DNA of 64,000 nt from positions 29,403-93,402 of the forward strand of contig DAINOJ010000003.1 in assembly GCA_036744005.1 (NCBI GenBank). Reading direction: 5' to 3'. The DNA comes from Bacillota bacterium. Lineage in GTDB: Bacteria; Bacillota; JAAYKD01. A program made the position numbers and the translations under genes. This document shows positions 16,714 to 59,946 of the stretch, in pieces (the stretch's first letter is position 1; every line of letters begins with the position of its first letter). The notes beneath the pieces are model-generated. The model searched no databases and had not been told where the DNA came from. It saw nothing but the letters and a program-made list of their open reading frames with translations.

Positions 16714-16769
16714 GTTGCACCTCCTAAGCCATGTGCTTATGTTAAAGCATAACATGTGGAGATAATCGT

Positions 16770-16815
16770 GTCAAAGAAAAAGAAAAGCAGGCCATGAAAG
16801 CCTTCATTGCCTGCT
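16770..16815 (-). terminator. Intrinsic terminator after the amidase gene (minus strand)
   Basis: On the minus strand, AGCAGGC...GCCTGCT hairpin followed by TTTTCTTTTTCTTT. Confidence 0.65.
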
Positions 16816-16837
16816 AAGGGAATATGATTCTGAGAGT

Positions 16838-18301
16838 CTAATTCAGGATTGCACAATCCGGGTCTTTGCGATGTTTGGTGTTGAGTTCGTATCCAGAGGC
16901 GATTTCAAGGAGCAATCCTTCTTGCCAGGCACTTGCGGTAAGAGACATACCAAATGGCTCGCCATTGGCTAGGTAACCGACGGGTACACAAATAGAAGGG
17001 TACCCAGCTCTAGCGGCCAATGTTGCTACACTGGAAGCAGCGAAGACGAGCGCATCGACCTTATATGTTTGTAAAGCCCAATCGATTCCTTCTTCACGGG
17101 ACCATTTTAAGTCGTTTTTTCGGTCTTGGATGTATTCTTTTTCACTCAAAGACCCACTGCGCGCCTGAGCTGCAATAAATTGGCTTTGGCCATATTTCAA
17201 GCATTGTTCGCTGTATTCTTGGTTGAAGCGGATCACATCGTTCATGTTGTGAACCGGTAGGTGAGATTCCACCGTGGAAAGGTATTTATTCAGAGCCGGT
17301 TTAAATTCAAAACTCATGGCATTGCCCACATTCCAAGCTTGTTTTCTTAGTTCAGCAAAACCGGGTATGTTTTCGATGATCTCAACCTCGGCACCCAAGG
17401 CTTTCACTTCATCCATGACACGCTTCATGGTATCTTGTTTTTCTTGGGAGAAGCAGTCATAATTCTGCGTGACAAAACCTAAGCGTTTGCCCTTCAGGCC
17501 ATCTGTTTTAATGTATGCAGTATAATCTTCTTCCATATGCCCGGAAGCCGACATTGTAGCAGCATCCTCATCGTCCACACCTACCATGGCATTCAGTAAG
17601 AAGGCGGCATCTTCGGTGCTAAGGGCTAAAGGACCGGCTGTATCTTGGCTGAACATAATTGGAATGATACCGCTACGACTGACGAGACCGACCGTGGGTT
17701 TGATTCCGACCAGGCTATTCCAACTGGCGGGGCTCATAATCGAACCGCTGGTTTCGGTACCCACCGCTACCGGCACCATGCGAGCCGCCACAGCAGCCGC
17801 GGAACCGGAACTGGAACCGCTGACATCGAAGACATCGGGACCATAGGGATTGAACACTTGTCCACCCCTTGAACTATAGCCGTTACGCATGTTCTGGGCC
17901 ATAAAATTCGCCCACTCGGTCATATTGGCTTTCCCAAATACGATGGCTCCGGCTTTACGCAAGCGTTTGACCACATAAGCATCTTTGGCGGCATAATGGT
18001 CTTTGAGGGCAAGCGAACCGGCAGAGGTATGGCACATATCGTGTGTGTCGATGTTGTCTTTAAGCAAGACCGGGATACCATGCAGGGCTCCTTTGGCTTT
18101 ACCTCGAGCTCGTTCACGATCTTTGGCTGCGGCCAAGTGTTCGAGTTCCGGATTCAATTCCAAAATAGCATTCAATTTGGGACCTTCATGATTGAGATGA
18201 GCTACCCGGTCTAGGTAAAAGCGAACGAGTGCTTGCGAAGTCAATGTGCCGTCATCTAGAACTTGTCTGAGTTGCTTCAGAGATAAGGACAAAATATCCA
18301 T
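16838..18301 (-). CDS. Amidase-signature (AS) family amidase
   Basis: Gly/Ser-rich AS motif GGSSSGSAAAVAARMVPVAVGTETSGSI and catalytic-region conservation. RBS GGGAGG. Confidence 0.8.
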   Translation of the reverse strand: MDILSLSLKQLRQVLDDGTLTSQALVRFYLDRVAHLNHEGPKLNAILELNPELEHLAAAKDRERARGKAKGALHGIPVLLKDNIDTHDMCHTSAGSLALKDHYAAKDAYVVKRLRKAGAIVFGKANMTEWANFMAQNMRNGYSSRGGQVFNPYGPDVFDVSGSSSGSAAAVAARMVPVAVGTETSGSIMSPASWNSLVGIKPTVGLVSRSGIIPIMFSQDTAGPLALSTEDAAFLLNAMVGVDDEDAATMSASGHMEEDYTAYIKTDGLKGKRLGFVTQNYDCFSQEKQDTMKRVMDEVKALGAEVEIIENIPGFAELRKQAWNVGNAMSFEFKPALNKYLSTVESHLPVHNMNDVIRFNQEYSEQCLKYGQSQFIAAQARSGSLSEKEYIQDRKNDLKWSREEGIDWALQTYKVDALVFAASSVATLAARAGYPSICVPVGYLANGEPFGMSLTASAWQEGLLLEIASGYELNTKHRKDPDCAILN

Positions 18302-18516
18302 GTTTCAACCTCCCTCACCTGTTTGAAGTTCTTTTCCACATAAGAGTTTGCATCCCCTTTTTTTCGTAGAGAAGGGATAAGGGGGAGTTGAATTATTTTT
18401 CCAGAAGAAAGGAGAACATTAAAAAATTCACGAATAGAAAGGCAGAAAAAGTTACAAAAATTTCATAGAGAAACCCGTCAGATATTACCGAAAAGAGTTT
18501 TTGAGGAGGTGTTTTT

Positions 18517-21500
18517 ATGTTCCGTCTCGGTACAAACCAGCGGTTCATTCGGGTGATTCATTGGTTATTGATATTTTCCATGATCGTCCCCCAAATTTCG
18601 GTAGTAGCGGTAGTGCAAGCACAAGAAAACGAGCAGACTCCAAGGCAGGAGTCTGTTTTTTTATCGGAAATCTCTTCCGACCCAGTTTTTCTGAGAGATG
18701 TTCCGGCAGGATCTACGGTGCAATTTGCGTCATATGATTGGCTGGTGCTCGATCCTGCCAATGGTATGCTGATCAAACAATCTCCCTATGGTACTCCGGT
18801 CCCCTACGACTCGTCAACACCGGGTGGTAATGTCTATTTCCAACCTTCGAATGCTAGCAACATTGGGTTTTTGTTAAATACGACCTTCTTATCCAGCTTA
18901 TCTGCACTCGACCAAAGCCGAATTCGCAATGTGAACTGGGAGATTGGGCCACAAGGACACGAGTGGGAGCACATCGTAGGTGCCAAGGTCGGGCTGTTAA
19001 ATACCATGCAAGTTCAAACCGAACCGGTAGCCAGCCAGTTGCAACCGTTTTTGGCGGACTCCTGGTTGCTGACTTGGCATGCCGTTGAGTATGATACATA
19101 TGCTTGGGCTTCCGGACTTTCTGGTAATTACTACATCGGTTCAGACCTTCTCCCAACCGTGGAAACCGATTACTCTGTGGGTCATAATGTCCACCCGGTG
19201 ATGTACTTATCCCCGAATACACCAACCTTAAGCGGAGCCGTCATACCACCACAAAATGAGATTCTTAGCTTCAGCGTACCGAACCAGAGGGGCGAAAGTG
19301 TGTTCGATTACGACACCTCGACCCTTACGTTTACGGTTACGGATTTGGTCGACCTAACCTCCATTGCCCCGCAAATTACGGTTTCTCCCGGAGCAACGTC
19401 TCAAGTGGTGAACGGTGTGGCTACGGATTTGTCGATTCCAACCACCTGCACCGTGACTTCATCCGATGGTTTCACAAAAAATTGGGTATTGGTTGCGCAG
19501 GTGCTTAGCACGAAAACCGATATCACTGAATTTAGCGTAGATGAAATGCAGCTGGTTGGCGAAGACAATTACGCCACCATAAACCGCAGTCTCCACACGG
19601 TACATTTTTTAGTCCCGGCAGATACCGATGTCACTCAACTGACCCCATCGATTTATGCCATGATGGATGCGAATATTGTACCCGAAACGAAAACAACGCA
19701 GGATTTCACTTCGCCGGTGGCTTATACCGTGACCGCCGAAGCGGGAAATTCGCAAAATTGGTTGGTCACTTGTGTGCGGGTAGGCGACACTGTGCCTTAT
19801 ACCGTAGAGCATTATCATCAGGATTTGGTCGGATTAAATTATTCCTTGAACCATACCCAAACTCTTTCGGGAACCTTGGGTAGCACCGTCACGGCTTCCA
19901 CCCAGAGCAGCTCTGGCTTTGTAGAAAACATCACCCAAGCAAACCGAATCACCTCTGGTGTGACCCAATTGGATGGCAGTTTAACTCTGCGACTTTATTA
20001 TGACCGGACTCTGCATCGTGTGACGTATGAAGAAGATGGTGGTAGTAGCGTGGCGGACCTCGCTTCTCTGCGCTATGGTAGTACGTTGACTACACCACAG
20101 ACTCCTGTCAGAACCGGCTACCAATTCTTGGGCTGGTTTACCGATGTAGACCGAACTCAAGCAGCATCTTTTCCCATGATCTTGACTGCAGACACCACCT
20201 TCTATGCCAAATGGCAATCTACGCTGGGAGAGCCGGGAGATATCACCGGATTTACGGTGCGCAATCAAAAAGGCAATAGCAGCATCACTCGTTATGATGG
20301 GTATGGTAGCATCGATTTGGTGATGCCAGCCGGTAGCGATGTACAATTCCTGTCACCGGTCATTACCACGGCTGCGGGTACGACGATTTCTCCTGCTTCC
20401 GGGGAAATTCGAGATTTTCGTGGCTCGGACCAATATGGGGTTGAATATACAGCAAGTTATGGCGAGGATTCAACTCTTGCCTGGTATGTACGGATGACCC
20501 TCGAAGAGGAACCCAAAGAAATTCGGACATTTCACGTCCCCGGACAGCTGGGAGACTCTATCATCAACCCAACCGACCATACCGTGTATTTTGTCATGCC
20601 TTTTGGTAGCGATGTAACTACTTTGCGGCCTTCGATTACCGTACCTAATTGGGACACCGTTTTTACAGGATACTGGTGGGGAGTGCAAAACTATTACTCA
20701 CCGACGGCATACGATGCAGAGGATTTCTCGTATCCGGTTGAATTTCATGTTGTAGGGAGCGATTCCATTGAGCAAAGTTGGACCGCTACCTGCAGGGTTC
20801 AGGCGGAAACAGCGGGGTATATTTCATCCTTTACTGTGCCAAGCCAGGTGGGGAACAGTTTCATCGACATGGTAAACCACAAAGTGGTCTTCCACATGCC
20901 CTACGGCACCGACGCCACTCATCTTGAGCCTACTATTGTAGTTCCTGCCGGAAGCACCCTGCAGCCCTTAGCCGATAGCGTTCGCGATTACTCCGGCTTG
21001 GTCTATTTCCAGGTCACTGCTCCGGGAGGAAGCCCCCAACTGTGGACCGTGCAATGCATCGTTGACCAGAATACCGAAAAGAGTATCGCAGGGGTGACCC
21101 TGGAGAAGAGCAAAGGTGTCGTCATCGATTCGGCTCTGCATACTGTCACCATAAAAATGCCGGCTGAAACCGATGTCACCAGTCTGGCACCACAGTTCCA
21201 ACTACCGGCGGGTGCAGAGATCTACCCTTCTTCCGGAATTGCCAAAGATTTCACTTCGCCAAGGCAGTACTTGGTTTATGCCCAAGATGGGAGCAAACAG
21301 CTTTGGACAGTAACAGTGTTACTATTGGGAAATGTGACCGTAGAGCATTATCAGATGATGCCTTCGGGAGATTGGTATGGAGTGGAGAGAGTCAACTATT
21401 ATTACGATCAGCAACCTAGTAGTACTTTTACCGCCGAAGCAGCTACTTTTGTGGGTTTTGTGGAGAACACCACGCACTCATCCCGTGTACCTGCCGGAAC

Positions 21501-24500
21501 CGTTCAAGCAGGGAAAACATTGACCCTCAAGTTGTATTACGACCGCCTACCCTACACCGTTCAATTTGTGGAAAATGGTGGTAGTGAAATTGCGGATTTA
21601 ACCCATGTTCTCTATGGAACCTGGCCAACACGACCCACTCCACCCGTGAAAACGGGGTATCGATTAGAAAACTGGTATACCGACCCAGAATGGACTAATG
21701 CTTATCAATTTAATGTGGATCTCACACAAGACCTAGTCCTCTACGCCAAATGGGAAGTCACCCCTCCCGTACTTTCACCTGCGGGTGGAAAGTATGCCCC
21801 GGGAATTACCGTGACAGCCGATATCGATTGCTATTACACCCTCGATGGCTCTGACCCACGCACCTCGTCCGGAGTGTTCCTCGCAGCGGGTGCAAGCATC
21901 GCCATAGACCAAACGACCTTGGTCAAATCGTGTTCTAAGCTTGCCGGAGAATATAGCCCGGTAGAAGAAACCACCTATGAAATCGTTACAACCAAATATT
22001 TGGTGAGCTTTGAGAGCAATCACGGAAGTGCCGTCGAAGCACAAGAAATTGCCTATGGACATCGTGCCACATTGCCGCAGACGCCGACTCAATATGGGTA
22101 CACCTTTGTTCATTGGTGCAGCGATATTCATTTAAGTGAACCGTATGATTTCTCAACCGCAGTTTATGAGGATATCACCCTGTATGCAAAGTGGACGTTC
22201 GCTACCTTAACCATCACCTTCGATACCCAAAGTGGGAGTACCATAGAACCCGTTTCTGCATGGTTTGGCACCTACTTAACCGAACCCACCCCACCCAGCA
22301 AAGCCGGATATACCTTTAAAGAGTGGAACCCAGCTTTCCCGAGCACCATGCCGGGAGAAGATATCACCTTAACTGCCATTTGGACTGCCAACCAGTATAC
22401 TCTACACTTCAATTCCGACGGTGGAAGCACTGTTGCAGACCAGTTGCAAACCTATCTTCAACCCATATCGGCTCCGGTTGCTCCTACCAAAACAGGATAT
22501 ACGTTTGCCGGTTGGTCTCCGGCGATTCCCAATGTCATGCCCATGTCCGATCTTACTGTCACGGCCCAATGGACGGTGAATCAATATACCATCACTTTCG
22601 ATTCTGACGGTGGCACAGCCGTATTACCTATAACTCAAGATTATGGCAGTACCCTGATTTCACCCGAGAATCCTACCAAAACCGGATACGAATTTGGTGG
22701 ATGGACTCCGTTTCTCCCTGCTACCATGCCTGCTGAGAATTTGACCTTGACAGCGTACTGGGGAGCAAATTTCTATACCGTCACCTTGGACACCAACGGG
22801 GGCAATCTCATCGACCCCATCCGCCGCGAAGTCAACACGGTGTTGACGGCACCGGCCAATCCAGTGCGAGCCGGATATATCTTTACTAGCTGGCAACCCT
22901 CATTCCCCTCGACAATGCCTGCTAATAACATGACCATTACAGCACAATGGCAAGCCAATTCGATTACACTGAGCTTTGATTCGGCCGGTGGTTCTGAAGT
23001 GGCTTCGATAGTACAGCTGTGCGATACGACGTGGACTCCTCCAGCGAATCCAAGCCGAGCCGGATATACCTTTGTTGCCTGGAACCCACTCTTGCCGAGC
23101 AAAATACCAACCTCTAACCAAACCCACACGGCAATGTGGAGCATCAACTCTTATACGATCAGCTTTACTACCGCAGGGGGCTCCGATGTTGCGAGTATGA
23201 CAGAAGCGTACAATACCCCCCTAACCCAGCCAACGAATCCAACCCGAACCGGCTATACCTTTAGCGGTTGGAATCCCACTTTCCCCACGAAGATGCCTGC
23301 CGAAAATCGAACCTTGGTGGCTCAGTGGACTCCGAATCTTTACACAGTGACCTTTGATTCCAAAGGCGGCTCTGCGGTAACACCAGTCACCCAAGAATAT
23401 CTCAAAGCCATAACTCTACCGAGCAACCCCTCCAAAGCAGGGCATACCTTTACCGGCTGGTATACCGATGCCGAAGCCACACTGTTATATGACTTCAACA
23501 CACTGATTACCGGAAATCGTACCCTTTATGCCGGTTGGCAGATACAAAGTTACCTGGTTCGCTTTGAAGACTGGGATGGCGAACTCCTCAAAGAAGAAAC
23601 AATAATCTATAACACCGCATCCAATCCACCGGTGAGTCCCGACCGTATGCCGACCGCTCAATACTTCTTTGAATTTACTGGTTGGGGTGGGGATACCAGC
23701 AAAATCACGTCTGCAACCACCTTTACAGCGGTGTATGAATCCATTTTGCGCCAATACACAGTGTATTACCTCGATACCACTGGGACAGAGATCTCCACCC
23801 AAACCGTTGCTTACGATAACTGGGCTGCGGAACCTCAACAACCTTATCGTGAGGGTCTCACCTTCATGGGTTGGTACCAAGATTCTGCTTTGATAAATGC
23901 GGTCACATTCCCGGTGCTCATACAGGGGGACATGTCGTTCTATGCCAGTTTCAAACGACCCGGAAACGAAATACTATCTTTCGAAGTAGCTGGGCAAGTA
24001 GGGAGCACCAGCATCGACTCCTATTTCAACATCGTGAGCCTAGTGGTACCATGGCATACCGACCGCACTCAACTCGTGACCACCATTACCGTTTCTCCGG
24101 GGGCACTGGTTTCGCCGGCTTCCGGAGTCGCCACGGATCTTAGTAATGGCAAGAATTTCACAGTCACTGCAGAAGATGGCAGCCAAAAACAGTGGTTGGT
24201 AATGGTTGGCGAAGCTGAATCTCCCAACGAAATTGAAACGTTCAAGGTTACCGGTCAAAATGGAGATAGCATCATCGACCCCGTCGCCCGCACGGTTGTC
24301 TTTCACATGCCCTTTGGCAGCAATGTGACCGCCTTAAGACCTGAAGTAACACTGACCTATGGGGCGTATTGCAACATTGGCTGGTTCCCCGACATGGACT
24401 ATGGGGGTCGTAATCCGGTTGATTTTACTTATCAAGTGAAATACACCGTGATTACCGACCAGAAAGGATCCTACTCGTATTGGCAAGAATGGCTGGTAAG

Positions 24501-27500
24501 CTGTGTTATCGATCCCAACACTGCCCATGATTTCACTGCGTTCTCTGTGCAAAATCAGGTAGGCAACAGCGAAATCAACACAGCAGACCATACCATTGTC
24601 TTTCATATGCCCTATGGGACTGACGTAACCAATTTGCAACCCCAGTGGACGTTGTCGGCCAATGCTGCGGTGAGCCTAGGGGCTTCCATCCGGGACTATA
24701 GTCAACCTGTTACCATGACTACTCGCTCCGAAAGTGGGGCAGAGCAAGTGTGGCAAATCACATGTGTCGTAGATCCCAACCGAGCCAACGATATTACCCA
24801 GTTTGTGGTGGCGAACCAAGTAGGGAGTAGCCAAATCGATGCGGCGAATCACACGATTGTATTCCACATGCTCTACAACACCGACGTCTCGGTCTTAACG
24901 CCACAAGTATTGATATCGGAAAAAGCCACCCTTTCGCCGGTGTCTGGACTGGTTCGTGATTTTAGATTACCTCAAACCTATGAAGTGACCTCTCAGAGTT
25001 TAGAAGTTCAGAATTGGACCGTGACCTGCGTGGTGGACCCCAATCGTGAAAACAAGATAGTAAGTCTGACCGTGCCAGGGCAAATAGGGCAGACTACTTG
25101 GGACGAAAGCAAGCAAGCCTGGGTGTTCCATGTGCCCTACGGAACCAACATTCAACAACTTACACCGAGTTTGACTCTCTCGGAGGAAGCTTCCGTGAAT
25201 CCAGCCAGTGGTACGACCTTAGATTTCAGCCAAGAGCAAATCTACACCGTGATTGCTCAAGGAGGAGAAATTCAAACTTGGGCCGTCCAATGTATGGTCG
25301 AACCCAACCAAGCAAACGACATCCTCACTTTTGTTGTAGACCGTCAGGTGGGCGAGAGCCTCATCGATGCGGCTCTACATACGGTGACCTTCCATATGCC
25401 CTATGGCACCAACGTCAAGACCTTAAACCCGAGCTTTACACTATCGGAACGGGCCAGCAGTGATGTGGCATCGGGAGTCCCTCGAGATTTTACACTTCCG
25501 GTGACCTACGGTATTCTCTCCGATAGTCAAGACGTACAGCTTTGGACCGTGACCTGTGTGGTGAACCCCAACACGGAAAACCGAATTCTTGGTTTCTCTG
25601 TGCCAAGCCAATCGGGTAGTAGTGTGATCGATACCAATGCACATACCATTACCCTTGCAGTTCCCTATGGCACACCCACTGGTGCGGTCATACCCACCTT
25701 CACCATTTCAGCAAAATCAACGGTAGAACCGGGCATTGGCGCAAGCGTGAATCTCGGGCAGCCGGTTGTCTACACCGTGACCTCTCAAAGTGGAACAGCT
25801 CAAACCTGGACCGTGACATGCAATATTTTACCCAATACCCAAAAGAATATAGAGCATTTTACGGTTCCGGGCCAAATCGGGGATACGGTCATAGACCAGA
25901 TCAACCATACCGTGCGCTTTGAAATGCCGTTTGCGACTCCGGTTACGGCCTTGACTCCAACCCTTGTCCTCTCAGTCGAAGCCAGCGTTTCACCAATCTC
26001 AACAGCTCAAGTCGACTTTTCTCAGCCGCAAACCTTTACAGTGACTGCACAAGATGGCACCAGTCAGGCATATATTGTGACTTGTATCCGTCGCAATACG
26101 GCGAATGATATTGTGAGTTTCCGAGTCAATGGTCAATACGGAAGCACTCAAATCGATTCTGTGAATCACAGCGTCCTCTTCTACTTGTTCCCAGGCACGT
26201 CCGTGAGCGCTCTTGCACCTACCCTAGAATGTTCCACTGGTGCCACGGTTTCACCAGTCAGCGGTAGAGAGCAAAACTTCAGTTCCGCCGTGGTCTACAC
26301 CGTTACCGCTGAAAACGGAACCCCCCAACTTTGGACGGTGACTTATCGCATATACTATGAACCCGAAGAAGAGGTAGCTCCACCGGTTAAACCACCAACA
26401 CCCCCTCCGGAAGATCAACCCTTGAAACCCAAGGAGCTGGAAGAGAAAATCGAACCATTAAAGAAAACCTTTGTTCAGGTGGCAACCGATAGCGCTTCGG
26501 GAATCACTTCCAAAACTGCAACCCTTGCAGGCCGCATCGTTGCAGGTGGCGGGGACTTGACCGTGGGATTCCGCTACCGTCAAGCCGGTCAAAGCGATTG
26601 GATGTATACCGGAACCAGCAGTCAAACCATTGGCAATGGTGGAACGTTCTCCACAACCTTGACGGATCTCTTACCCGGAACCGAATATGAAGCAGAAGCC
26701 AGAGCAGCCAACAGCTTTGGTTTAGGGGAAGGCGGAGTCGTATCTTGGAAGACCACAGCGGCAACAGCACCGAAAGTGGCAACCTATGAAGCCGTTGGGT
26801 TGAGCTTAAATCAAGCTACCCTCACGGGTGCGGTACTGGATGATGGAGGATCTGTTCTCACCAATACCGGCTTCCAATGGGGCTTGAGTGAAGATTCTGC
26901 TTCCGAAGTGAGCACCGGCATCGGTAAACTACTACAAACCACCATTACGGACTTGAAACCGGGTCAGAAAATCAGCTATCGTGCATTTGCCGGCAATGCC
27001 GTTGCGACGACCTATGCTTCTTGGCAAACCTTTACAGTTCCTGGTTTGGTCGTCACCACCTTGAAGCCAACCGAAATCACTCGATCATCGGCAACTTTGC
27101 AAGGTCTCATCGTCGGCAGTAGCAAAATCATCGAAAGCGGTTTCAGTATTAGCCCGGGAGATGTCAATCTCCTCTTGGCAAACCCCAATGCGCAAGGTGA
27201 ATTCTCGGTCAACTTGCAGAACTTAAAACCCGATGCCAAGTACTATTACACGGCCTATGCCAAAACAGCCGTCGGAGAATTCCGTGGCGAAGTTCAAGAG
27301 TTGATACTCGTCAATGACTTCCCGGTGGTAGAAACGTTGGAAGCCACGGAGAAGGCAACCATTGTGGCCAACATCGGTGGCTATGTCATCAAGAACAGTG
27401 GCTATAAGATTACCGACAGTGGCTTTGTCTGGGGTATGGACCCCAATCCCGACCAAAAAATCTCGGTGTCTCCTGGTGAAGACCTACGAACCCTGCAATA

Positions 27501-30500
27501 TAAACTGGTGGGGTTAAAGGGGGGTACCACTTATTACTATCGAGCCTATGCTACGAACGAAAAGGGTACTGGATACGGTAAGACCATGCAGTTTATCACT
27601 GCAAAGGCCCTAAAACCGACAGTGGTGACGCAATCGGTGAGCTTTGACCCTGCCAGCTGGCAATGGGTTCTGGTGGGAAGTGTTGCCAACAACGGTGGCG
27701 TTCCTTTGGTGGAATATGGCTTCCGCATTAGCAGCGATGAAAGCCAATGGGCGAATTTGGTGGTTGGCTTCGACGTGCGTGGGAATTATATCTCGAGAGG
27801 GTTGCAGTTCATGGATGAACTAACACCCGGTACATACTACATGCGTGCGTATGCTTTGAACCCAGGTGGCATGGGAGAAGGGGAAATCCTCTCGTTTAAG
27901 GTGCCCACCAAACCGAGTATCACGGCTGCAGTGGATAGGGAAAGCATTGTATTGGATCATCTCACACTCGTCGGGACAATCACCGATACGGGCGGTTCAG
28001 AGATTTCTTGTGTGACCACTCAATTTAAGGTTCGCAAAGTGGGTGAAAGCGAATGGACTACACTGGGGACCACCCAAGGTGTGTTTGGAATAGGGGATTT
28101 CCGTTTTGATGCCAGCAGCTTGTCCCCCGGAGCGAAGTATGAGCTCATGGCCGAGGCTCGCAACCAAATTGGCTGGGGAAGCAGTGCGGTGGTTTCTTTC
28201 CAAATGAACTATGGCAAAACAGATCGAGATGCGGTAACGTATTTGAAAACACAAGGAAAGACGGCTACCGAGATTGCTACGCTTTTGAAGACCTATTATC
28301 AAGATAGCCCGGCCTCTGCCTTTGCTGCCTTGGTATTTGGAGAATTCAGCTTAAGTGACATCACAGCGGCGATGAAACAATCGACATATGCCACCAGCCA
28401 CCGTAATGTGGCAAACCTCATTCAACAAGCAGGTTACGATGCTAAGGCTCTGACGAAAGTGATGTTAGAGCATTATGACCGTGATGTACTAATGATGGCC
28501 AGCGGGAATCGAGAAGAAGGTGCCTTGCTGTTAGCCAAAGTCAGTGGGTATACTTCTGTTGATCTTGCCAAAGTATGTTTGGAGCTGTTCCAATACGATA
28601 CAGCAAGAACCGTATCCCGATTAAGTACTTATAATTTCTATGGGCAAGACGAAGCATATCGAGCGGCCCTAGAAGTGTATGGACTAGAGTCTATGATACA
28701 ATTTTTGCTTGCCCAAGCGAATAGCTCCTTGCAACGTAGTGGTCAAGGGCGTATGCTTACAATTTTGACGGAAACAACCGCTTTTTTGCGTAACGTTGCG
28801 AAGTTGAGTTCAGAAGAAACGGCAAGTGTGTTAACGCGTTTTCATGCTGGCTTAAGTGCCAAAGAGCTAGCCAATGCGTTCTATTATGCCAAAGAAACCG
28901 TTTTCGAAACGGGCAAGGCCATTGCTTACTTGTTTGGGAGCAATCTTTCTGATATCGCCAGAGCACTAGAAGATACGCCCTTGAAAGAAGAGCGCATCAA
29001 CGACTACCTGATTTTAGACCTCGGAGCATCGGCTTTGGATATGGTGCCCATTGTGGTCGATATCTATAACCACTGGATGGACCCCAAAGAAGGGTGTGCC
29101 ATTATTTTCAAAACCTACTTCAAGTTAGATGCGATTGGTGCGGCGAAAGTTTTATATGCCGCCGGATGGACGGAGAATGTCGTCGATTATCCCGGTTATG
29201 GATTAGGTAATCTCATTTGGACCATGAAGTTACACTATGGCTACACCAGTGATGCGCAGTTGATTGAAGTATTTAAAGCGCTGGGGTTGTCCCCTCTGGA
29301 AGTAGCCAAACGGTTGGTGAACAATTCCGGCTGGCGGTGGTTACCATCATACCGGTTGGGTGGATACACAGCGACCGATGCCGCGGTCTGGCTCAAAGCA
29401 GATTGGGTGAAATACGGTCGTAGAACGCAAATCAGTCAGACCATTAAGATGTGCTATGAGGCCGGTTATGAGGTATCGGACATTGCATCGGCTTTGATTT
29501 TCCACTATGACCTCGAAATTGCTGAGGCCATGGCATTCTTTGTCGACAACATCAATCTGAGCTCGACAGCCATTAACGAAGCATTAACCAAGGCTTATGG
29601 CAAAGATCCTTTACAAAGCGCAGTAGAAAAAATGAAAGGGCAACCGCTGGAGAAGATTCTTTCGACTCTAAAGAGTACGTATGAAGTGAAAGATCCGGTT
29701 GAGGTGACAAATTTACTAATCAAAGCGGGGTATTCGCAGGAAGCCATTTTCGAAAAGATGATTTGGACCTATTTTGAATCGTTTAATCGGCGAGAGCATC
29801 TTGAGGCATTTACGGCATATCTGCAACAAATAGACTCTGGATTGAATCGAAAAGACGCCATGAATGCATTTCTGCGTCGAAATCAACTTGCGGAAGGCCC
29901 AGAACACGCTGCCGGTTTCCTCAGGCATTCTGCACAGTATTCTATGAGTGAAATCGCGGAAATCTTCCAAAACGAGTACCAAATAACCATTGCAGAGGCG
30001 TTGACCGTCTTCTTTAGCACCTTTGGAGCAGGCAAAGAAGTAGAGTATTACCCGGTTGTCGTCAAGGCCTACGATATGGACGTTAGCAGTTACATCAGAT
30101 ATCAACACAAACGGGGCATTGACGCAACCGAGAGTACCAAAGAACTCATCGACAACTTCAAACTGACCAATCAGATTGAAATCGCAGAAGTCCTCTACAA
30201 AAGTGATTACAATAAAGAAGCCATTGTCCAGAGTTTCCTGCAAGTATACTTCTCCGGTTTTCTAAGTCCGGAAGTAATAACGCTCATGAATGAGTTGGAT
30301 GAGAAGGTATTTAAGCAAGGATTGAGCGTACAAATCGAAACACTGACACAAAAAGGTACGTTGCAACCCGTAACAAAGGTGATTACAACCTTGTACGCCG
30401 CGGGGATTTCGCTAACAGAGATCATCCGAACTCTGAAAGATTTATATGCACTTTCTCAGAAAGAAGCTCATGACAGTACCATGGCGGTGTCTCTGTTCTC

Positions 30501-32190
30501 CTACGAAGAGGTGTCACAGGCAGTTCAGCTGGTTTATGGCGGTGATTTTGTGGTCGCGATGATACGCTTGTGGCGAACGAAAAAGTGGGGAAATGCGGAG
30601 TATTGCTTTAGAGAATTGGAACGGTCTTCAGGGATCAACGATCGGGTAGCCATCTTCCGTTACTTACGCATTGCGGGTTTCAGCGAGGAAGAAGCAGCAG
30701 TCGGTTTATACTGGGTGGCGCGAGATGACATGCTCGTGACGTTGAAAGAGGCATACAACCTGCAAAGCGCACTCGAACTCGCCCAAAAGTTGAAACAAGT
30801 CACCGGAGATTTAACGAGTCGATTCTATAGTACGACCTTTGCGAATTACTTAGTATCATTGTTCCCGCAGACTACCAATTACGAAATCGTAAAAGCCTTC
30901 TTAGCGATTGGTCTGCAGATACCACAAACAGGCACCGATTCCATAGCCGGATGGCTGCGCTCGCATGCGAACGTGGGTAAACGCGATAACAGGTTGGCTG
31001 CTTACTTGGGAACGAATAACAATGGATTGAACTTGGAAGTGCATACAGCGATTGAGATTTTAGAAAAAATGGGCTACAATATTCAAGATGCCGTGTATTG
31101 GGCTCTGCAATCAGGATACCAGTGGAAAGATTTTTTGCAGCATATGGTATATCGTTTTGCTCCAGCGAGTTTCCCGACATCTTATTATGATAACAATTCG
31201 TCCTCCAAGTTTGTTGTCATGTATCTAAAGGATTATTATTCTGCACTCGATATTGCAGCAGGCTTACTGGGCTATCATAAGTCCGCAGGAAGGGTACTTG
31301 CGGATCTCATCAGTGGTGGATTTTCCGTGGAAGAAGCGACCTACGCTACATTATGGCAAGGAGGAGGAGCCGCAGTCGATATTGTGGTCAGTTTGGTGGA
31401 TGATAGCATTGGACGAGCCAATACGGCAAGAGATCAATCGTTACGACTGAACGCCGTGCAAGCTACCGAGATAGCGTTCTACAACAGTTTAGCGGTTGCG
31501 TATGATCGTAAAGTAAAAGGACTTCCTTATGAGGACCCCATTACCTTGGAGGATTTAGCGGCAAGTTTGGTCAAGTATGGTCCCAGTGCACAAAGTGGGT
31601 GGAGCAGCCAATATTTCAGCCACTGGGAAGTGCTGACTGCCATGCAAAATATTACCCGAATTTACTTAGAACTCGCCAAGGTGGACATGCCCTACACGGA
31701 AATTGCCCTAGCCACGTTGCGCTTGGCAGGACTCTCGGTTTCGGATGCAGCCGAGATGATGGCAGCACATAAAGTGGGCTTGAGTACCGGTGATGTGATT
31801 ATGAGTGTGCTGGGGTTAGGAAACGAGTGGTTCGATGCCGTCAAAATTCTTGCCGGAAGCGGCTATAGCTTTAGTGACTCAATGTCCGCTGTTTACAATA
31901 ACAGAACCTATCACATGGTGATCGGTATTAGTGTACTCAGTAGCTTGGTCACAACCGCGGTATCGAAACTTAGCAGTATCGCTTCACTGGGAACCTACAT
32001 TAATTATGTCAAACAAACCGCTGTTTTAGGATTTATGATTGGTCAGAATGCTAGTTATACGGATATGTTGCTGCATTTACCCAATTTCTATTTGGGATTC
32101 TTCGGAAAATTGGCCTATGCCGGGGGTAGAGTAGGTTATACTTATATCCCGAAAGATTACCGTGTTGAAACGTATGTGCCTATTCCATAA
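18517..32190 (+). CDS. Giant secreted/surface repeat protein (4557 aa): signal peptide, Ig-like beta-sandwich repeats, InlB B-repeat (Flg_new-type) arrays, Fn3-like repeats, Pro-rich linker, ~1200-aa alpha-helical repeat array, hydrophobic C-terminal tail
   Basis: RBS GAGGAGG 7 nt before ATG. N-terminal hydrophobic signal-like segment. Repeat classes read directly from the translation; no LPXTG, SLH or choline-binding motifs seen. Confidence 0.85.
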   Translation: MFRLGTNQRFIRVIHWLLIFSMIVPQISVVAVVQAQENEQTPRQESVFLSEISSDPVFLRDVPAGSTVQFASYDWLVLDPANGMLIKQSPYGTPVPYDSSTPGGNVYFQPSNASNIGFLLNTTFLSSLSALDQSRIRNVNWEIGPQGHEWEHIVGAKVGLLNTMQVQTEPVASQLQPFLADSWLLTWHAVEYDTYAWASGLSGNYYIGSDLLPTVETDYSVGHNVHPVMYLSPNTPTLSGAVIPPQNEILSFSVPNQRGESVFDYDTSTLTFTVTDLVDLTSIAPQITVSPGATSQVVNGVATDLSIPTTCTVTSSDGFTKNWVLVAQVLSTKTDITEFSVDEMQLVGEDNYATINRSLHTVHFLVPADTDVTQLTPSIYAMMDANIVPETKTTQDFTSPVAYTVTAEAGNSQNWLVTCVRVGDTVPYTVEHYHQDLVGLNYSLNHTQTLSGTLGSTVTASTQSSSGFVENITQANRITSGVTQLDGSLTLRLYYDRTLHRVTYEEDGGSSVADLASLRYGSTLTTPQTPVRTGYQFLGWFTDVDRTQAASFPMILTADTTFYAKWQSTLGEPGDITGFTVRNQKGNSSITRYDGYGSIDLVMPAGSDVQFLSPVITTAAGTTISPASGEIRDFRGSDQYGVEYTASYGEDSTLAWYVRMTLEEEPKEIRTFHVPGQLGDSIINPTDHTVYFVMPFGSDVTTLRPSITVPNWDTVFTGYWWGVQNYYSPTAYDAEDFSYPVEFHVVGSDSIEQSWTATCRVQAETAGYISSFTVPSQVGNSFIDMVNHKVVFHMPYGTDATHLEPTIVVPAGSTLQPLADSVRDYSGLVYFQVTAPGGSPQLWTVQCIVDQNTEKSIAGVTLEKSKGVVIDSALHTVTIKMPAETDVTSLAPQFQLPAGAEIYPSSGIAKDFTSPRQYLVYAQDGSKQLWTVTVLLLGNVTVEHYQMMPSGDWYGVERVNYYYDQQPSSTFTAEAATFVGFVENTTHSSRVPAGTVQAGKTLTLKLYYDRLPYTVQFVENGGSEIADLTHVLYGTWPTRPTPPVKTGYRLENWYTDPEWTNAYQFNVDLTQDLVLYAKWEVTPPVLSPAGGKYAPGITVTADIDCYYTLDGSDPRTSSGVFLAAGASIAIDQTTLVKSCSKLAGEYSPVEETTYEIVTTKYLVSFESNHGSAVEAQEIAYGHRATLPQTPTQYGYTFVHWCSDIHLSEPYDFSTAVYEDITLYAKWTFATLTITFDTQSGSTIEPVSAWFGTYLTEPTPPSKAGYTFKEWNPAFPSTMPGEDITLTAIWTANQYTLHFNSDGGSTVADQLQTYLQPISAPVAPTKTGYTFAGWSPAIPNVMPMSDLTVTAQWTVNQYTITFDSDGGTAVLPITQDYGSTLISPENPTKTGYEFGGWTPFLPATMPAENLTLTAYWGANFYTVTLDTNGGNLIDPIRREVNTVLTAPANPVRAGYIFTSWQPSFPSTMPANNMTITAQWQANSITLSFDSAGGSEVASIVQLCDTTWTPPANPSRAGYTFVAWNPLLPSKIPTSNQTHTAMWSINSYTISFTTAGGSDVASMTEAYNTPLTQPTNPTRTGYTFSGWNPTFPTKMPAENRTLVAQWTPNLYTVTFDSKGGSAVTPVTQEYLKAITLPSNPSKAGHTFTGWYTDAEATLLYDFNTLITGNRTLYAGWQIQSYLVRFEDWDGELLKEETIIYNTASNPPVSPDRMPTAQYFFEFTGWGGDTSKITSATTFTAVYESILRQYTVYYLDTTGTEISTQTVAYDNWAAEPQQPYREGLTFMGWYQDSALINAVTFPVLIQGDMSFYASFKRPGNEILSFEVAGQVGSTSIDSYFNIVSLVVPWHTDRTQLVTTITVSPGALVSPASGVATDLSNGKNFTVTAEDGSQKQWLVMVGEAESPNEIETFKVTGQNGDSIIDPVARTVVFHMPFGSNVTALRPEVTLTYGAYCNIGWFPDMDYGGRNPVDFTYQVKYTVITDQKGSYSYWQEWLVSCVIDPNTAHDFTAFSVQNQVGNSEINTADHTIVFHMPYGTDVTNLQPQWTLSANAAVSLGASIRDYSQPVTMTTRSESGAEQVWQITCVVDPNRANDITQFVVANQVGSSQIDAANHTIVFHMLYNTDVSVLTPQVLISEKATLSPVSGLVRDFRLPQTYEVTSQSLEVQNWTVTCVVDPNRENKIVSLTVPGQIGQTTWDESKQAWVFHVPYGTNIQQLTPSLTLSEEASVNPASGTTLDFSQEQIYTVIAQGGEIQTWAVQCMVEPNQANDILTFVVDRQVGESLIDAALHTVTFHMPYGTNVKTLNPSFTLSERASSDVASGVPRDFTLPVTYGILSDSQDVQLWTVTCVVNPNTENRILGFSVPSQSGSSVIDTNAHTITLAVPYGTPTGAVIPTFTISAKSTVEPGIGASVNLGQPVVYTVTSQSGTAQTWTVTCNILPNTQKNIEHFTVPGQIGDTVIDQINHTVRFEMPFATPVTALTPTLVLSVEASVSPISTAQVDFSQPQTFTVTAQDGTSQAYIVTCIRRNTANDIVSFRVNGQYGSTQIDSVNHSVLFYLFPGTSVSALAPTLECSTGATVSPVSGREQNFSSAVVYTVTAENGTPQLWTVTYRIYYEPEEEVAPPVKPPTPPPEDQPLKPKELEEKIEPLKKTFVQVATDSASGITSKTATLAGRIVAGGGDLTVGFRYRQAGQSDWMYTGTSSQTIGNGGTFSTTLTDLLPGTEYEAEARAANSFGLGEGGVVSWKTTAATAPKVATYEAVGLSLNQATLTGAVLDDGGSVLTNTGFQWGLSEDSASEVSTGIGKLLQTTITDLKPGQKISYRAFAGNAVATTYASWQTFTVPGLVVTTLKPTEITRSSATLQGLIVGSSKIIESGFSISPGDVNLLLANPNAQGEFSVNLQNLKPDAKYYYTAYAKTAVGEFRGEVQELILVNDFPVVETLEATEKATIVANIGGYVIKNSGYKITDSGFVWGMDPNPDQKISVSPGEDLRTLQYKLVGLKGGTTYYYRAYATNEKGTGYGKTMQFITAKALKPTVVTQSVSFDPASWQWVLVGSVANNGGVPLVEYGFRISSDESQWANLVVGFDVRGNYISRGLQFMDELTPGTYYMRAYALNPGGMGEGEILSFKVPTKPSITAAVDRESIVLDHLTLVGTITDTGGSEISCVTTQFKVRKVGESEWTTLGTTQGVFGIGDFRFDASSLSPGAKYELMAEARNQIGWGSSAVVSFQMNYGKTDRDAVTYLKTQGKTATEIATLLKTYYQDSPASAFAALVFGEFSLSDITAAMKQSTYATSHRNVANLIQQAGYDAKALTKVMLEHYDRDVLMMASGNREEGALLLAKVSGYTSVDLAKVCLELFQYDTARTVSRLSTYNFYGQDEAYRAALEVYGLESMIQFLLAQANSSLQRSGQGRMLTILTETTAFLRNVAKLSSEETASVLTRFHAGLSAKELANAFYYAKETVFETGKAIAYLFGSNLSDIARALEDTPLKEERINDYLILDLGASALDMVPIVVDIYNHWMDPKEGCAIIFKTYFKLDAIGAAKVLYAAGWTENVVDYPGYGLGNLIWTMKLHYGYTSDAQLIEVFKALGLSPLEVAKRLVNNSGWRWLPSYRLGGYTATDAAVWLKADWVKYGRRTQISQTIKMCYEAGYEVSDIASALIFHYDLEIAEAMAFFVDNINLSSTAINEALTKAYGKDPLQSAVEKMKGQPLEKILSTLKSTYEVKDPVEVTNLLIKAGYSQEAIFEKMIWTYFESFNRREHLEAFTAYLQQIDSGLNRKDAMNAFLRRNQLAEGPEHAAGFLRHSAQYSMSEIAEIFQNEYQITIAEALTVFFSTFGAGKEVEYYPVVVKAYDMDVSSYIRYQHKRGIDATESTKELIDNFKLTNQIEIAEVLYKSDYNKEAIVQSFLQVYFSGFLSPEVITLMNELDEKVFKQGLSVQIETLTQKGTLQPVTKVITTLYAAGISLTEIIRTLKDLYALSQKEAHDSTMAVSLFSYEEVSQAVQLVYGGDFVVAMIRLWRTKKWGNAEYCFRELERSSGINDRVAIFRYLRIAGFSEEEAAVGLYWVARDDMLVTLKEAYNLQSALELAQKLKQVTGDLTSRFYSTTFANYLVSLFPQTTNYEIVKAFLAIGLQIPQTGTDSIAGWLRSHANVGKRDNRLAAYLGTNNNGLNLEVHTAIEILEKMGYNIQDAVYWALQSGYQWKDFLQHMVYRFAPASFPTSYYDNNSSSKFVVMYLKDYYSALDIAAGLLGYHKSAGRVLADLISGGFSVEEATYATLWQGGGAAVDIVVSLVDDSIGRANTARDQSLRLNAVQATEIAFYNSLAVAYDRKVKGLPYEDPITLEDLAASLVKYGPSAQSGWSSQYFSHWEVLTAMQNITRIYLELAKVDMPYTEIALATLRLAGLSVSDAAEMMAAHKVGLSTGDVIMSVLGLGNEWFDAVKILAGSGYSFSDSMSAVYNNRTYHMVIGISVLSSLVTTAVSKLSSIASLGTYINYVKQTAVLGFMIGQNASYTDMLLHLPNFYLGFFGKLAYAGGRVGYTYIPKDYRVETYVPIP
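21550..23960 (+). repeat. Array of ~11 InlB B-repeat / Flg_new-type ~70-aa repeats within the giant gene
   Basis: Units such as YTVTFDSKGGSAVTPVTQEYLKAITLPSNPSKAGHTFTGWYTD...LYAGW recur with diverged sequence. A further isolated copy lies at ~20000-20220. Confidence 0.7.
23960..26340 (+). repeat. Array of ~13 Ig-like ~87-aa repeats within the giant gene
   Basis: Consensus F.VP.Q.G.S.ID...HT..FHMPYGTDVT.L.P...LS..A.VSP.SG...DF..P..YTVT...G..Q.W.VTC.VDPN. Earlier copies lie at ~19240-19790 and ~20230-21320. Confidence 0.7.
26470..28210 (+). repeat. ~7 Fn3-like ~85-aa repeats within the giant gene
   Basis: Units with TATL.G.I...GG......GF.Y........W......................L.PGT.Y...A.A.N..G.G.G, following the linker EPEEEVAPPVKPPTPPPEDQPLKPKE. 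Confidence 0.6.
28215..31900 (+). repeat. ~19 diverged copies of an unassigned alpha-helical repeat (core L..AGYS.eeIa..L...Y) within the giant gene
   Basis: Recurring units such as LIQQAGYDAKALTKVMLEHYD, MCYEAGYEVSDIASALIFHYD, LLIKAGYSQEAIFEKMIWTYF, LRIAGFSEEEAAVGLYWVARDD and ILEKMGYNIQDAVYWALQSGY, spaced ~60-70 aa apart. Confidence 0.6.
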
Positions 32191-32212: not shown

Positions 32213-32262
32213 ATCGTGCCGGTTCCTGTGAAAAGGGAACCGGCACGATTTATTTGTATTTT
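32213..32262 (+). terminator. Strong intrinsic terminator after the giant gene
   Basis: ATCGTGCCGGTTCC-tgtgaaaa-GGAACCGGCACGAT (14-bp stem) followed by TTATTTGTATTTT. Confidence 0.85.
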
Positions 32263-32354
32263 ATTCTAATTTTCTATTGACATATGCTGTGATGTTTGAT
32301 AGTTTTAGAGAGAAGATGTGTTTTGCACAGTAAAGAATGGTTAGGAGGAGGATG

Positions 32355-33203
32355 ATGAGACAAACAGCAGTCTCGGCAGGAAAGCTTCTTTGGGGGAAGT
32401 TACTCTTCATAACATTGGGTGGCTTGATGTTATCGCGTATTGAGAACGGAAGTTCGTATGCATCCCATCTCTTTGTTCTCATCTTGGCATTGTATGAGAG
32501 GACTCCGGTCTTGGAGTCAAAACGCAACCCTTCTCGTCAAGCATGGCTGGGCTTTGCCATGGTCATTTTGAGCGGGTTTTTCCTCACCGGAGTGGCTGGT
32601 TATCTTACCGATGGTGTTTTAGGTCTTCTAGGGTATCGACAAGAGACCTCACATTACATAGAGTTTTTGGGCAGTGGTTGGTCACTGCTTTTTCGTACCT
32701 CTTTATTGGCCCCCATTGCCGAAGAGGTTTTCTTTCGTGGCATTTTATTAAAACGATTGCTGCCTCATGGCATCCTTTTTGCTGCGATTGCTTCTTCGTT
32801 TCTCTTTGCCATACAGCATGGCGTGCTCATTCAGGTTTTCTATGCATTCTTTGTGGGTCTGTTTTTGTGTGCGGTGACTTATCGGTACGGATTACGCTGG
32901 GCAATCGTCATCCACATCTTGAACAATTTGACGATGTCGAGCATTCTTCTGTTGCATTACAATGGCTTACCCGCATCCTACTTAACTAACATCGAAAATA
33001 TCCTTACTGCGTTGGGTGGCCTTTCGATGCTGTTGCTGTTAAAGCAGCGGCGTGAAGTTAAACCCTGGTGGAGAAATTTTCTGCTGGGACAAGAGCAAAC
33101 AAAAGAGAAACTATGGCATTTCTTCAAAGAACATTGGATGTGGACGTATGTTTTATTCAACGTAGTGGTCATGATACCATTTCTGATTTCTCCCTTGGAA
33201 TAA
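32355..33203 (+). CDS. CPBP-family intramembrane metalloprotease (CAAX protease / Abi-type), paralog 1
   Basis: Catalytic-region motifs EEVFFRGILLKRLLPHG and FAIQHG, ending at HILNNL; polytopic. Start at ATG 32355 after GGAGG (ATG 32352 possible). Confidence 0.75.
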   Translation: MRQTAVSAGKLLWGKLLFITLGGLMLSRIENGSSYASHLFVLILALYERTPVLESKRNPSRQAWLGFAMVILSGFFLTGVAGYLTDGVLGLLGYRQETSHYIEFLGSGWSLLFRTSLLAPIAEEVFFRGILLKRLLPHGILFAAIASSFLFAIQHGVLIQVFYAFFVGLFLCAVTYRYGLRWAIVIHILNNLTMSSILLLHYNGLPASYLTNIENILTALGGLSMLLLLKQRREVKPWWRNFLLGQEQTKEKLWHFFKEHWMWTYVLFNVVVMIPFLISPLE

Positions 33204-33241: not shown

Positions 33242-34132
33242 TTGAAACAAGCACTTACGTCTGCAGGGAAGTTACTTTGGAAGCAGATGGCATTCATTAC
33301 CATTGTAGCATTGCTGTTTCGCAAAAATGCGCAAAGCGCGAATTGGGCGGTGCTGGCTTTTGTGCTCTTTGTGGCTTTTCGCGAAAAATTACCGGTTTGG
33401 AAAGAAGAATGTACCCCAACGGGGAAACGATTTGCCGAAATTCTGTTGTTGATCTTTGGGTTTCGTTTGATGACACTGCAGTTGTTTGGGATCATTCAGC
33501 AGTTTTTACAACCCTTGGGGTTAGAACAAAATTTGGAAGCCTATTCCGAATTCTTGGGTTCAGGGTGGAGCATGTTTTTTCTAACTGTGCTGGTTGCCCC
33601 ATTGGGAGAAGAAATTTTATACCGAGGGCTTCTTCTACAGCGCTTGTTGCCACATGGAAAAGGAATGGCGATCTTTCTCCCTGCACTTCTTTTTGCTTCA
33701 CAACACGCCATCTTGACCCAATCCATCCATACTTTTTTTATGGGCGTTTTATTGGGTGCGATTGCTATGCAATACGGGTTGCGTTGGTCGATTCTGCTGC
33801 ATGCTTTGAACAATTTTTTTGTCTTCCTGCAAAGCTCATTGCACCAGCACGACCATGGAATTCAGCAGATGAACAGTGAGTATACCTTGTGGATGAGTCA
33901 AATCCTGAACTGGGTTTTTGTGGGATTGGGTGTACTGGGGATCCTGTACTTCATATGGAAATGGCGGAAGCAACAGCAGGACTGGAAGTCCTGGTGGTTG
34001 GAGTATAGGCCACAACCGGGGCAATGGTGGGAAGTTCTGACCAATGGTTGGATGATCAGTTATTTGGCGTTTAACTTTTTGAGTATGTTACTTTTTCTGC
34101 TAGCACCTCAAATTACCGAGTTGCCACATTAA
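33242..34132 (+). CDS. CPBP-family intramembrane metalloprotease (CAAX protease / Abi-type), paralog 2
   Basis: EEILYRGLLLQRLLPHG, FASQHA, HALNNF. N-terminus (KQALTSAGKLLWKQMAFITI) is paralogous to the upstream gene (RQTAVSAGKLLWGKLLFITL). TTG start after GAGAGGGAA. Confidence 0.7.
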   Translation: MKQALTSAGKLLWKQMAFITIVALLFRKNAQSANWAVLAFVLFVAFREKLPVWKEECTPTGKRFAEILLLIFGFRLMTLQLFGIIQQFLQPLGLEQNLEAYSEFLGSGWSMFFLTVLVAPLGEEILYRGLLLQRLLPHGKGMAIFLPALLFASQHAILTQSIHTFFMGVLLGAIAMQYGLRWSILLHALNNFFVFLQSSLHQHDHGIQQMNSEYTLWMSQILNWVFVGLGVLGILYFIWKWRKQQQDWKSWWLEYRPQPGQWWEVLTNGWMISYLAFNFLSMLLFLLAPQITELPH

Positions 34133-38863: not shown

Positions 38864-39122
38864 TGGAATTATATGGTTACAAACAAATGGCCAAAAATTT
38901 ACAATGATTATTTTTAATCAGAGAAGGAGTTTGTAAAAAACAGCACGAATAACAAAGACATTCGATATGTGGCTTAAACATACACTATGCATCAATATGT
39001 TGTGTTTCTATACTCGTTGAACAATTAATACGGTTACAAATTAATTACATGCATACTTTGGGGCTTTGACGTAAAAACAAAGCTCTTTCGTATAGATTTG
39101 GACCAAGAAGGAGGTGAAAAAT

Positions 39123-39905: not shown

Positions 39906-39947
39906 GGATGCAACGTATACTTTAAAAACAATAAGGAGGTGTAAACC

Positions 39948-40583: not shown

Positions 40584-40616
40584 GCAAAGATCTTGCAGAA
40601 AAGGAGGTGTCCAAGC

Positions 40617-41441: not shown

Positions 41442-41458
41442 AGTGAGGAGGTGATTTT

Positions 41459-56726: not shown

Positions 56727-56853
56727 TGAATGACTAGTAAGGGAACGAGGGATTTCATTTCGAATGAGGGGTTCAATTTTGTAAAATAAAAGGATAATGT
56801 CGACATAAAACGAAATAATTGGTATTCAACAAATTTTGTGCGGAGGTGACAAT

Positions 56854-59895: not shown

Positions 59896-59946
59896 TGCGG
59901 TATGTAACTAAAATTGAAACATTTACATGGATTGGGGGAGAATGCT

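Follow-up and report, generated by a model that had tools for sequence, protein, structure and literature searches.

We analysed a window of 64,000 nucleotides of genomic DNA from a Bacillota bacterium, an uncultured member of the Clostridia (contig DAINOJ010000003.1, positions 29,403 to 93,402 of the forward strand), in which a giant gene occupies nucleotides 18517..32190 of the plus strand; all nucleotide coordinates below are those of this window unless another contig is named. Translation of the window gives an uninterrupted open reading frame (ORF) of 4557 codons without an internal stop. The encoded protein combines a long N-terminal head of repeated domains with a conserved C-terminal cassette, which consists of six fibronectin type III (Fn3)-like units and an all-alpha helical-repeat module. 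This helical module is the distinctive part of the protein: it is conserved, collinear among relatives and unannotated, and it is common to a tiny family of giant proteins that otherwise carry different heads. Repeats were counted with hidden Markov models (HMMs) iterated on the protein's own repeats, termed own HMMs below, beside scans against Pfam and NCBIfam, and the helical part was modelled with AlphaFold2 (AF2). The features of the gene are as follows, with amino acid (aa) positions in brackets and relatives designated by P numbers:

18503–18509, + strand: strong ribosome-binding site GAGGAGG, 8 nt 5′ of the ATG at 18517, read from the sequence.
18517–18621, + strand: Sec-type signal peptide (aa 1–35), from translation and hydropathy, with the cleavage site VQA/Q placed by eye.
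18673–19227, + strand: DUF6273-like N-terminal head domain (aa 53–237), by homology to the head domains of P0014, P0011 and P0016.
19249–19773, + strand: two immunoglobulin (Ig)-like DUF5018-type repeats (aa 245–419), by own HMM and Pfam DUF5018.
19792–20190, + strand: 'YTVEHY' domain (aa 426–507), then Flg_new unit 1 (aa 500–558), by own HMMs.
20227–21318, + strand: four Ig-like DUF5018-type repeats (aa 571–934), by own HMM.
21328–21726, + strand: second 'YTVEHY' domain (aa 938–1020), then Flg_new unit 2 (aa 1012–1070), by own HMMs.
21778–21975, + strand: CHB_HEX_C_1 / Fn3_assoc-type domain (aa 1088–1153), by PF13290 (E 6.4e-5, 23.3 bits, cut-off 22).
21994–23925, + strand: ten tandem Flg_new (Listeria-Bacteroides / InlB B-repeat-type) units (aa 1160–1803), by PF09479, TIGR02543 and own HMM.
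23956–26346, + strand: nine tandem Ig-like DUF5018-type repeats (aa 1814–2610), by own HMM.
26347–26475, + strand: Pro/Glu/Lys-rich linker (aa 2611–2653), read from the translation.
26476–28209, + strand: six Fn3-like units (aa 2654–3231), first half of the conserved cassette, by own HMM and Pfam fn3 (E 1.6e-10).
28210–31902, + strand: all-alpha helical-repeat module (aa 3232–4462), second half of the cassette, by family search, AF2 and profile self-repeats.
31903–32187, + strand: conserved C-terminal tail (aa 4463–4557), by family alignment, AF2 and hydropathy.
32213–32249, + strand: intrinsic-terminator-like hairpin with a 15-bp stem, 9 G-C pairs and a T-rich tail, starting 23 nt past the stop codon.

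Since this hairpin follows so closely on the stop codon, the giant gene looks monocistronic. The predicted signal peptide begins with a positively charged n-region (R3, R9 and R12), continues with an h-region that reaches a Kyte-Doolittle 19-residue mean of 2.12 and −11.45 kcal/mol on the Wimley-White octanol scale, and ends at VQA/Q; a lipobox cysteine is absent. An earlier note on this DNA, made from the letters alone, had read the locus as a single 13.7 kb gene with a signal peptide, and the uninterrupted ORF and the plausible signal peptide bear this out.

A long ORF of this kind might be an assembly chimera or a decaying pseudogene and hence non-functional; mis-assembly is common among metagenome-derived repeat genes, and the syntenic site in the nearest species representative (L001) is without the giant gene. 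We consider this explanation so improbable that it can practically be set aside. Eight contigs, seven of them 50–200 kb long, encode the identical 4557-aa protein, and the 90%-identity cluster of the protein holds two more sequence variants, both again of 4557 aa. An ortholog on the metagenome contig L046 is 78% identical and collinear with aa 1096–4545, and its sole length differences over ~3460 codons are five short in-frame gaps of 1–9 codons. The ratio of nonsynonymous to synonymous substitution rates (dN/dS, Nei-Gojobori) between the two genes is about 0.1, with values of 0.06–0.16 in the five regions in which dS is unsaturated (Flg, Ig, linker, Fn3 and the middle third of the helical part), dS being saturated in three other regions. 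Copies of the repeats share a mean amino acid identity of 0.27–0.35 and a maximum nucleotide identity of 0.61, and Tandem Repeats Finder (TRF) reports no tandem DNA repeats in the gene; repeats this diverged therefore cannot collapse or mis-join during assembly. Taken together, these comparisons show the ORF to be intact and under purifying selection. The low identities between repeat copies agree with the statement of the earlier note that the repeats are diverged at the DNA level and hence old.

With aa 3358–4557 as the query, an exhaustive HMMER search of 1.84 billion cluster representatives yielded no more than 33 proteins at E<=1e-3, among them the window protein itself; E<=1e-30 is reached by 19. 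The longer members are giant proteins of 1.9–3.6 kaa and align collinearly with essentially all of aa 3231 to about 4510. In the complete members, all of them giant and secreted, the helical module sits at the C-terminus or close to it, always behind several Fn3-like units; the same Fn3 array precedes the module in P0002–P0016. The heads vary from member to member and include NHL beta-propellers, Flg_new arrays, DUF5018 Ig arrays, DUF6273-like domains and an SbsC-like domain, and signal peptides are present in those members that begin at a start codon. Within the module a motif h..L..AG(Y/F)S..d.a..L...Y recurs at many turns, and the family as a whole is marked by the motifs AAK.lYaaGWTE, GYTA.DAa.W, DD.LAa.LG, slrL.a and aGYSf.DS.sAv.NN..Y...iG...LS. 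The window protein serves as the reference member of this family, which we define by the collinear module, the preceding Fn3-like units and the signal peptide. Source databases name the members 'hypothetical protein' or after their peripheral domains, and their bin labels are Bacillota or Clostridia, apart from two labels that may reflect mis-binning.

Curated resources do not recognise the module. The last ~1330 aa have no match in Pfam (even at E<=1), NCBIfam or PHROGs, and the module, searched alone or as a family profile, finds nothing below E 0.2 among PDB sequences. When 16 pure-module fragments were compared with Pfam at E<=1, no recurrent family emerged, the scattered weak matches being to UBA, HTH and RepB_primase_C. 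No relative was found in a scan of the contigs of GTDB species representatives, and the 64-kb window holds no second copy of the module. As far as sequence can tell, the helical module thus appears to be a new and rare family of exported helical-repeat proteins.

Structure prediction depended on the family alignment. A single-sequence AlphaFold model of aa 4150–4557 had a predicted local distance difference test (pLDDT) value of 40 and was discarded, whereas AF2 with the 31-sequence family alignment gave a model of aa 3358–4557 with a mean pLDDT of 81.9, in which 976 of the 1200 residues score at least 70. This model is entirely alpha-helical, with 68 helices (tail included) of a median length of 11 residues, turns of 3–5 residues and a median two-helix period of 32 residues. 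When the family profile was aligned with itself, off-diagonal matches of E 5e-54 to 7e-8 appeared at shifts of about 85, 173, 221, 290–305, 365 and 465 residues, from which we conclude that the module is an internal repeat of ancient origin, each unit now being specific to its position. The earlier note had listed a helical repeat region of ~1200 aa as one repeat class beside the others; its all-alpha character is supported by the prediction and its length comes to ~1300 aa, but to call it merely another class of repeat misses what sets it apart.

Two relatives carry recent, near-identical tandem duplications within the module, P0003 at aa ~1738–1950 and ~2720–2870 and P0011 at aa ~2310–2660. 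The duplicated units are 72–76 residues long and by our reading comprise about four helices each. Such duplications imply that the module can still grow in this way.

Comparison of the AF2 model with PDB structures by Foldseek retrieved TPR/HEAT-type solenoids (Ski3, Ctr9, IFT-A, Naa15 and PPR10), whose E values run from 9e-6 to 1e-2 but whose TM-scores are about 0.1, and a search of the viral folds in BFVD returned nothing at E<1e-3. Among generic helical-repeat proteins, the closest folds are the TPR arrays of Ski3, Ctr9 and Naa15, the PPR array of PPR10 and designed helical repeats; tandem small helical bundles (RecX, the RepB′ helical domain and Ltp of phage TP-J34) are also among them. 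The module is accordingly predicted by the model to be a helical-repeat array of generic architecture with no identifiable homolog.

A search for known retention signals in the protein was negative. At E<=0.01 over the whole protein, Pfam detects no LPXTG, SLH, LysM, choline-binding, CWB2, GW or WxL module, and in the last 429 aa no known anchor family appears in Pfam even at E<=1. The protein contains no strict LPXTG string, no LPXTG-like string after aa 4300 and no match to Gram_pos_anchor. The 39 window ORFs that were compared with Pfam include no sortase; nine ORFs of at least 150 aa lay outside this set. The same Pfam scan detects the SLH protein beside the L046 ortholog at E 5.6e-18, so the method does recognise SLH domains in this lineage. 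The earlier description of a mosaic secreted surface-type protein without a recognisable anchor therefore holds in Pfam, NCBIfam and string searches, and as a whole the protein matches no described adhesin family with a known anchor in Pfam.

Three groups of known proteins invite comparison. (i) The class 1 internalins and other Flg_new surface proteins of Bacillota resemble the window protein in its 12 B-repeat-type units and in its secreted, modular, adhesin-like build. Class 1 internalins, however, are characterised by an N-terminal cap, leucine-rich repeats (LRRs) and an inter-repeat Ig-like domain, and the window protein has neither LRRs nor an inter-repeat domain, nor an LPXTG or GW anchor. 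The NCBIfam models internalin_A (212 bits, cut-off 1600) and internalin_H (181 bits, cut-off 1050) stay far below their cut-offs with matches limited to the B-repeat part, and the Pfam scan shows no LRR family; the protein is thus not an internalin by these models. (ii) Staphylococcal giants of the Ebh/Embp type are likewise very large and secreted, carry a long helical-repeat region toward the C-terminus and have no sortase signal. They differ in possessing FIVAR-GA repeats, DUF1542 and a membrane anchor, whereas the window protein has no FIVAR, GA or DUF1542 match at E<=0.01 and no convincing transmembrane segment, and so falls outside this type. The three-helix bundles of Ebh are about 126 aa long, whereas the window module is built from helices of 10–12 residues. 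(iii) The known wall-binding modules (SLH, CWB2, CW_binding_1, LysM, GW, WxL, SH3b, PG_binding and CW_7) share with the cassette the role proposed below, that of a constant end module. Known non-covalent wall-binding modules are roughly 40–200 aa long, and many of those that grip anionic polymers are basic; the window module, in contrast, measures ~1300 aa and is acidic, and none of the known wall-binding families is detected in the protein.

The Ebh/Embp comparison raises the possibility that the tail helices (aa 4463–4509) act as a C-terminal transmembrane anchor with a stop-transfer function. The tail follows the last AGYS hairpin with the family motif Y[HK].VIG.S.LS.....A...L ... I ...... 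GF.IG, and is predicted to form two amphipathic, mildly hydrophobic helices before ~36 residues with pLDDT below 50. A membrane-spanning role would be in keeping with a borderline Kyte-Doolittle 19-residue mean of 1.68 at aa 4467–4486, with the pI (isoelectric point) of 9.3 of the tail and with the position and pattern of the segment, which are kept in most relatives. On the Wimley-White octanol scale, however, aa 4467–4486 is not among the six most hydrophobic windows of the protein. The best tail window, aa 4517–4535, contains Pro, Lys and Gly and reaches only −6.27 kcal/mol, close to a strand segment of an Ig repeat (−5.74) and to the helical array (−5.33) and far from the signal peptide. 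The earlier description of a hydrophobic tail is weakened by the same values. The equivalent segment has a low Kyte-Doolittle mean of 0.9–1.2 in P0009, P0011 and P0029, no cluster of basic residues stands right behind it, and AF2 shows it as two helices that continue the repeat array (pLDDT 47–69). Three relatives extend beyond the tail: P0026 with SdrD_B-like, Flg_new_2 and CarboxypepD_reg domains, P0008 and P0004 by 130–150 residues. A membrane-spanning segment would place such extracellular-type domains in the cytoplasm. A membrane anchor formed by the tail is therefore unlikely, and we rate this explanation as improbable.

Gram-positive surface proteins with a C-terminal anchor usually combine a constant C-terminal part with heads that vary. 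The variable heads and the constant, collinear cassette therefore make the helical module the best candidate for the missing retention function. We propose, with a probability that we put slightly below even, that the Fn3 units and the helical module form a base that holds or assembles the protein at the cell envelope. A more specific version, which we regard as possible and would sooner bet against than for, is that the cassette represents an unrecognised envelope attachment or assembly module of monoderm Clostridia, an analogue of SLH, CWB2 and LPXTG that is unrelated to them in sequence and fold and onto which different lineages would graft adhesive heads of their own, such as NHL propellers, Ig arrays or B-repeats.

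In the mechanism that we envisage, Sec would export the giant modular protein. Its lineage-variable N-terminal part, composed of the DUF6273-like domain, 15 Ig-like repeats, 12 Flg_new units, the two 83-aa domains and one CHB_HEX_C domain, would act as a binding head, the Pro-rich linker as a hinge and the six Fn3-like units as the stalk of the C-terminal cassette. The helical array would then retain or assemble the protein non-covalently, either via a wall polymer, the S-layer or a partner protein, or by self-association. The head would be presented outward, about 2600 residues away, and its ligand would probably be a glycan or another surface. That the protein is extracellular, that its head acts as an adhesin and that the module serves attachment are all inferred.

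Several observations weigh against attachment by the cassette. (i) The genomic context shows no association between the helical module and the cell wall, and there is no conserved neighbour gene, the neighbours differing among the window, L046, L047 and L048. (ii) The module is acidic, with a pI of 5.3 in the window protein and of 4.7–5.5 in relatives. (iii) With a predicted template modelling score (pTM) of 0.46, the AF2 model is not reliable as to the module's overall shape. (iv) The further domains or residues behind the module in P0026, P0008 and P0004 imply that it need not be terminal and may be an internal scaffold instead of a base.

Some of these points would suit a protein that is released or only loosely associated with the cell. 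The helical array would then be a protein-protein scaffold or self-assembly domain that builds an extracellular matrix, coat or fibre, or that recruits secreted proteins. We judge this alternative to be somewhat unlikely. It accommodates the acidity of the module, the failure to find a known anchor type and the extracellular-type domains behind the module in some relatives, and the closest folds are indeed scaffolding solenoids (Ski3, Ctr9, the TPR subunits of IFT-A and Naa15). The gene is also present, absent or moved among close relatives, as an accessory matrix or adhesin gene would be. A constant C-terminus combined with a variable N-terminus is, however, what is expected of an attachment end, and the loss of an adhesin-like array of 4520 aa to the medium would be costly. 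Moreover, this reading cannot be told apart from one in which the protein is attached by assembling with itself at the cell.

Giant adhesins built from repeats are no rarity, and most of the window protein, with its Ig-like, B-repeat and Fn3 units, is ordinary. The exceptional part is a large, well-conserved module that curated family and structure resources do not recognise and that recurs solely toward the C-terminus of a few dozen giant secreted proteins encoded by uncultured Clostridia-type genomes. If the cassette is a retention device, it would add a new entry to the short list of Gram-positive-type modes of protein display, would help to predict which proteins little-known anaerobes expose on their surface, and might serve as a display scaffold. 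If the module is instead a scaffold or matrix element, it would still represent a new exported helical-repeat family whose secondary structure is confidently predicted. The family is small, however, and the function of its helical module is putative.

The families that the protein matches above their Pfam or NCBIfam cut-offs are Flg_new / List_Bact_rpt, DUF5018 and DUF5018-rel, fn3-type and one CHB_HEX_C_1. Over the whole protein, DUF5018 (PF16410) scores 182.8 bits at E 1.1e-53 (cut-off 38.2) and DUF5018-rel (PF22243) 95.4 bits at E 3.4e-27 (cut-off 28.1), which places the protein among DUF5018-type repeat proteins. Flg_new (PF09479) reaches 421.8 bits at E 2.7e-129 (cut-off 27) in 11 stretches, which the own HMM resolves into 12 units, and List_Bact_rpt (TIGR02543) reaches 128 bits (cut-off 20.95); the protein is thus also a Flg_new repeat protein, by one of its repeat classes only.

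These counts revise the domain inventory of the earlier note in part. Its repeat classes stand, as do its count of about 12 InlB B-repeat-type units and its Pro-rich linker. In place of more than 25 Ig-like repeats, the iterated HMM gives 15, in blocks of 2, 4 and 9, and in place of about 7 Fn3-like units it gives 6. A W.VTC motif had been said to end each Ig-like repeat, but only 11 sites fit a W.VTC-like pattern. The inventory had further overlooked the DUF6273-like head, both 'YTVEHY' domains and the single CHB_HEX_C_1 domain.

The head domain (aa 53–237) has no direct Pfam match, and nothing below E 0.2 was found for it among PDB sequences. Its assignment runs through P0014, which it matches by phmmer at E 1.5e-19 and which itself matches DUF6273 weakly (E 1.3e-4, 22.3 bits, under the cut-off of 23.5). 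The 'YTVEHY' domains (19792–20037 and 21328–21576) are 83 aa long, start with (P)YTVEHY and each stand directly before a Flg_new unit. Pfam has no match for this domain and PDB sequences give nothing below E 0.2; it is also visible in the relatives P0002 and P0007.

The surroundings of the giant gene are chromosomal and ordinary. Upstream of it, the minus strand carries amidase, GNAT acetyltransferase and Macro-domain genes, and downstream lie two CPBP/CAAX proteases, a GGDEF protein and an ABC-2 transporter. The nearest GTDB species representative is an uncultured 'Eubacteriales' metagenome-assembled genome (MAG), the source of L001, whose CNNM protein is 72% identical to that of the window. 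For the same protein, Marvinbryantia-labelled and other Clostridia MAGs reach 54–59% and Christensenellaceae MAGs 52–56%. L001 is collinear with window positions 2923–37471 but lacks the giant gene; 189 bp behind its amidase gene stands a single CPBP gene. On L046 the ortholog is placed at the opposite side of the amidase and adjoins a gene cluster, not present in the window, that encodes an SLH protein, an RsgI-like anti-sigma factor and a sigma factor. The variable spot around the amidase is at 14358–16899 in L001, at 119–14130 in L046 and at 15826–18301 in the window. Because it is absent in L001 and placed differently in L046 and in the window, the giant gene appears to be accessory and positionally variable. 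SLH anchoring is used for other proteins in this lineage, SLH proteins being present in the related genome behind L046 and L001.

The CPBP/CAAX (Rce1-like) intramembrane proteases stand in tandem at 32337–33203 and 33242–34132 (+ strand) and are single-copy in L001 and L046. We rejected a functional link between them and the giant protein, as they occur in L001 without the giant gene and do not adjoin it in L046, L047 or L048. A conserved partner gene was likewise rejected, the small ORFs downstream of the homologs being mutually unrelated. Base composition was not decisive for horizontal transfer, with a GC content of 0.46–0.51 inside the gene and of 0.43–0.47 in its flanks.

Rfam and tRNA scans of the window came back empty. 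A second giant ORF at 49116–56726 (+ strand) encodes 2536 aa with a signal-like N-terminus, one TIG domain and a weak PQQ/beta-propeller match, the rest of it being unannotated; the helical module is absent from it. Behind it lies an ORF of 624 aa (56836–58710, + strand) that has no Pfam match. At 39114–42079 (+ strand), a DUF6754 gene (E 6.5e-85) is followed by three ORFs of 206–282 aa, again without a Pfam match, in an uncharacterised cluster that has no relation to the giant gene. Finally, the 64 kb hold three cyclic di-GMP (c-di-GMP) genes, at 5390–6955, 34205–35119 and 59914–62640, two of which encode GGDEF proteins and one a PAS-GAF-GGDEF-HD-GYP protein. One of the three lies 2 kb downstream of the giant gene, and c-di-GMP often controls adhesin production.

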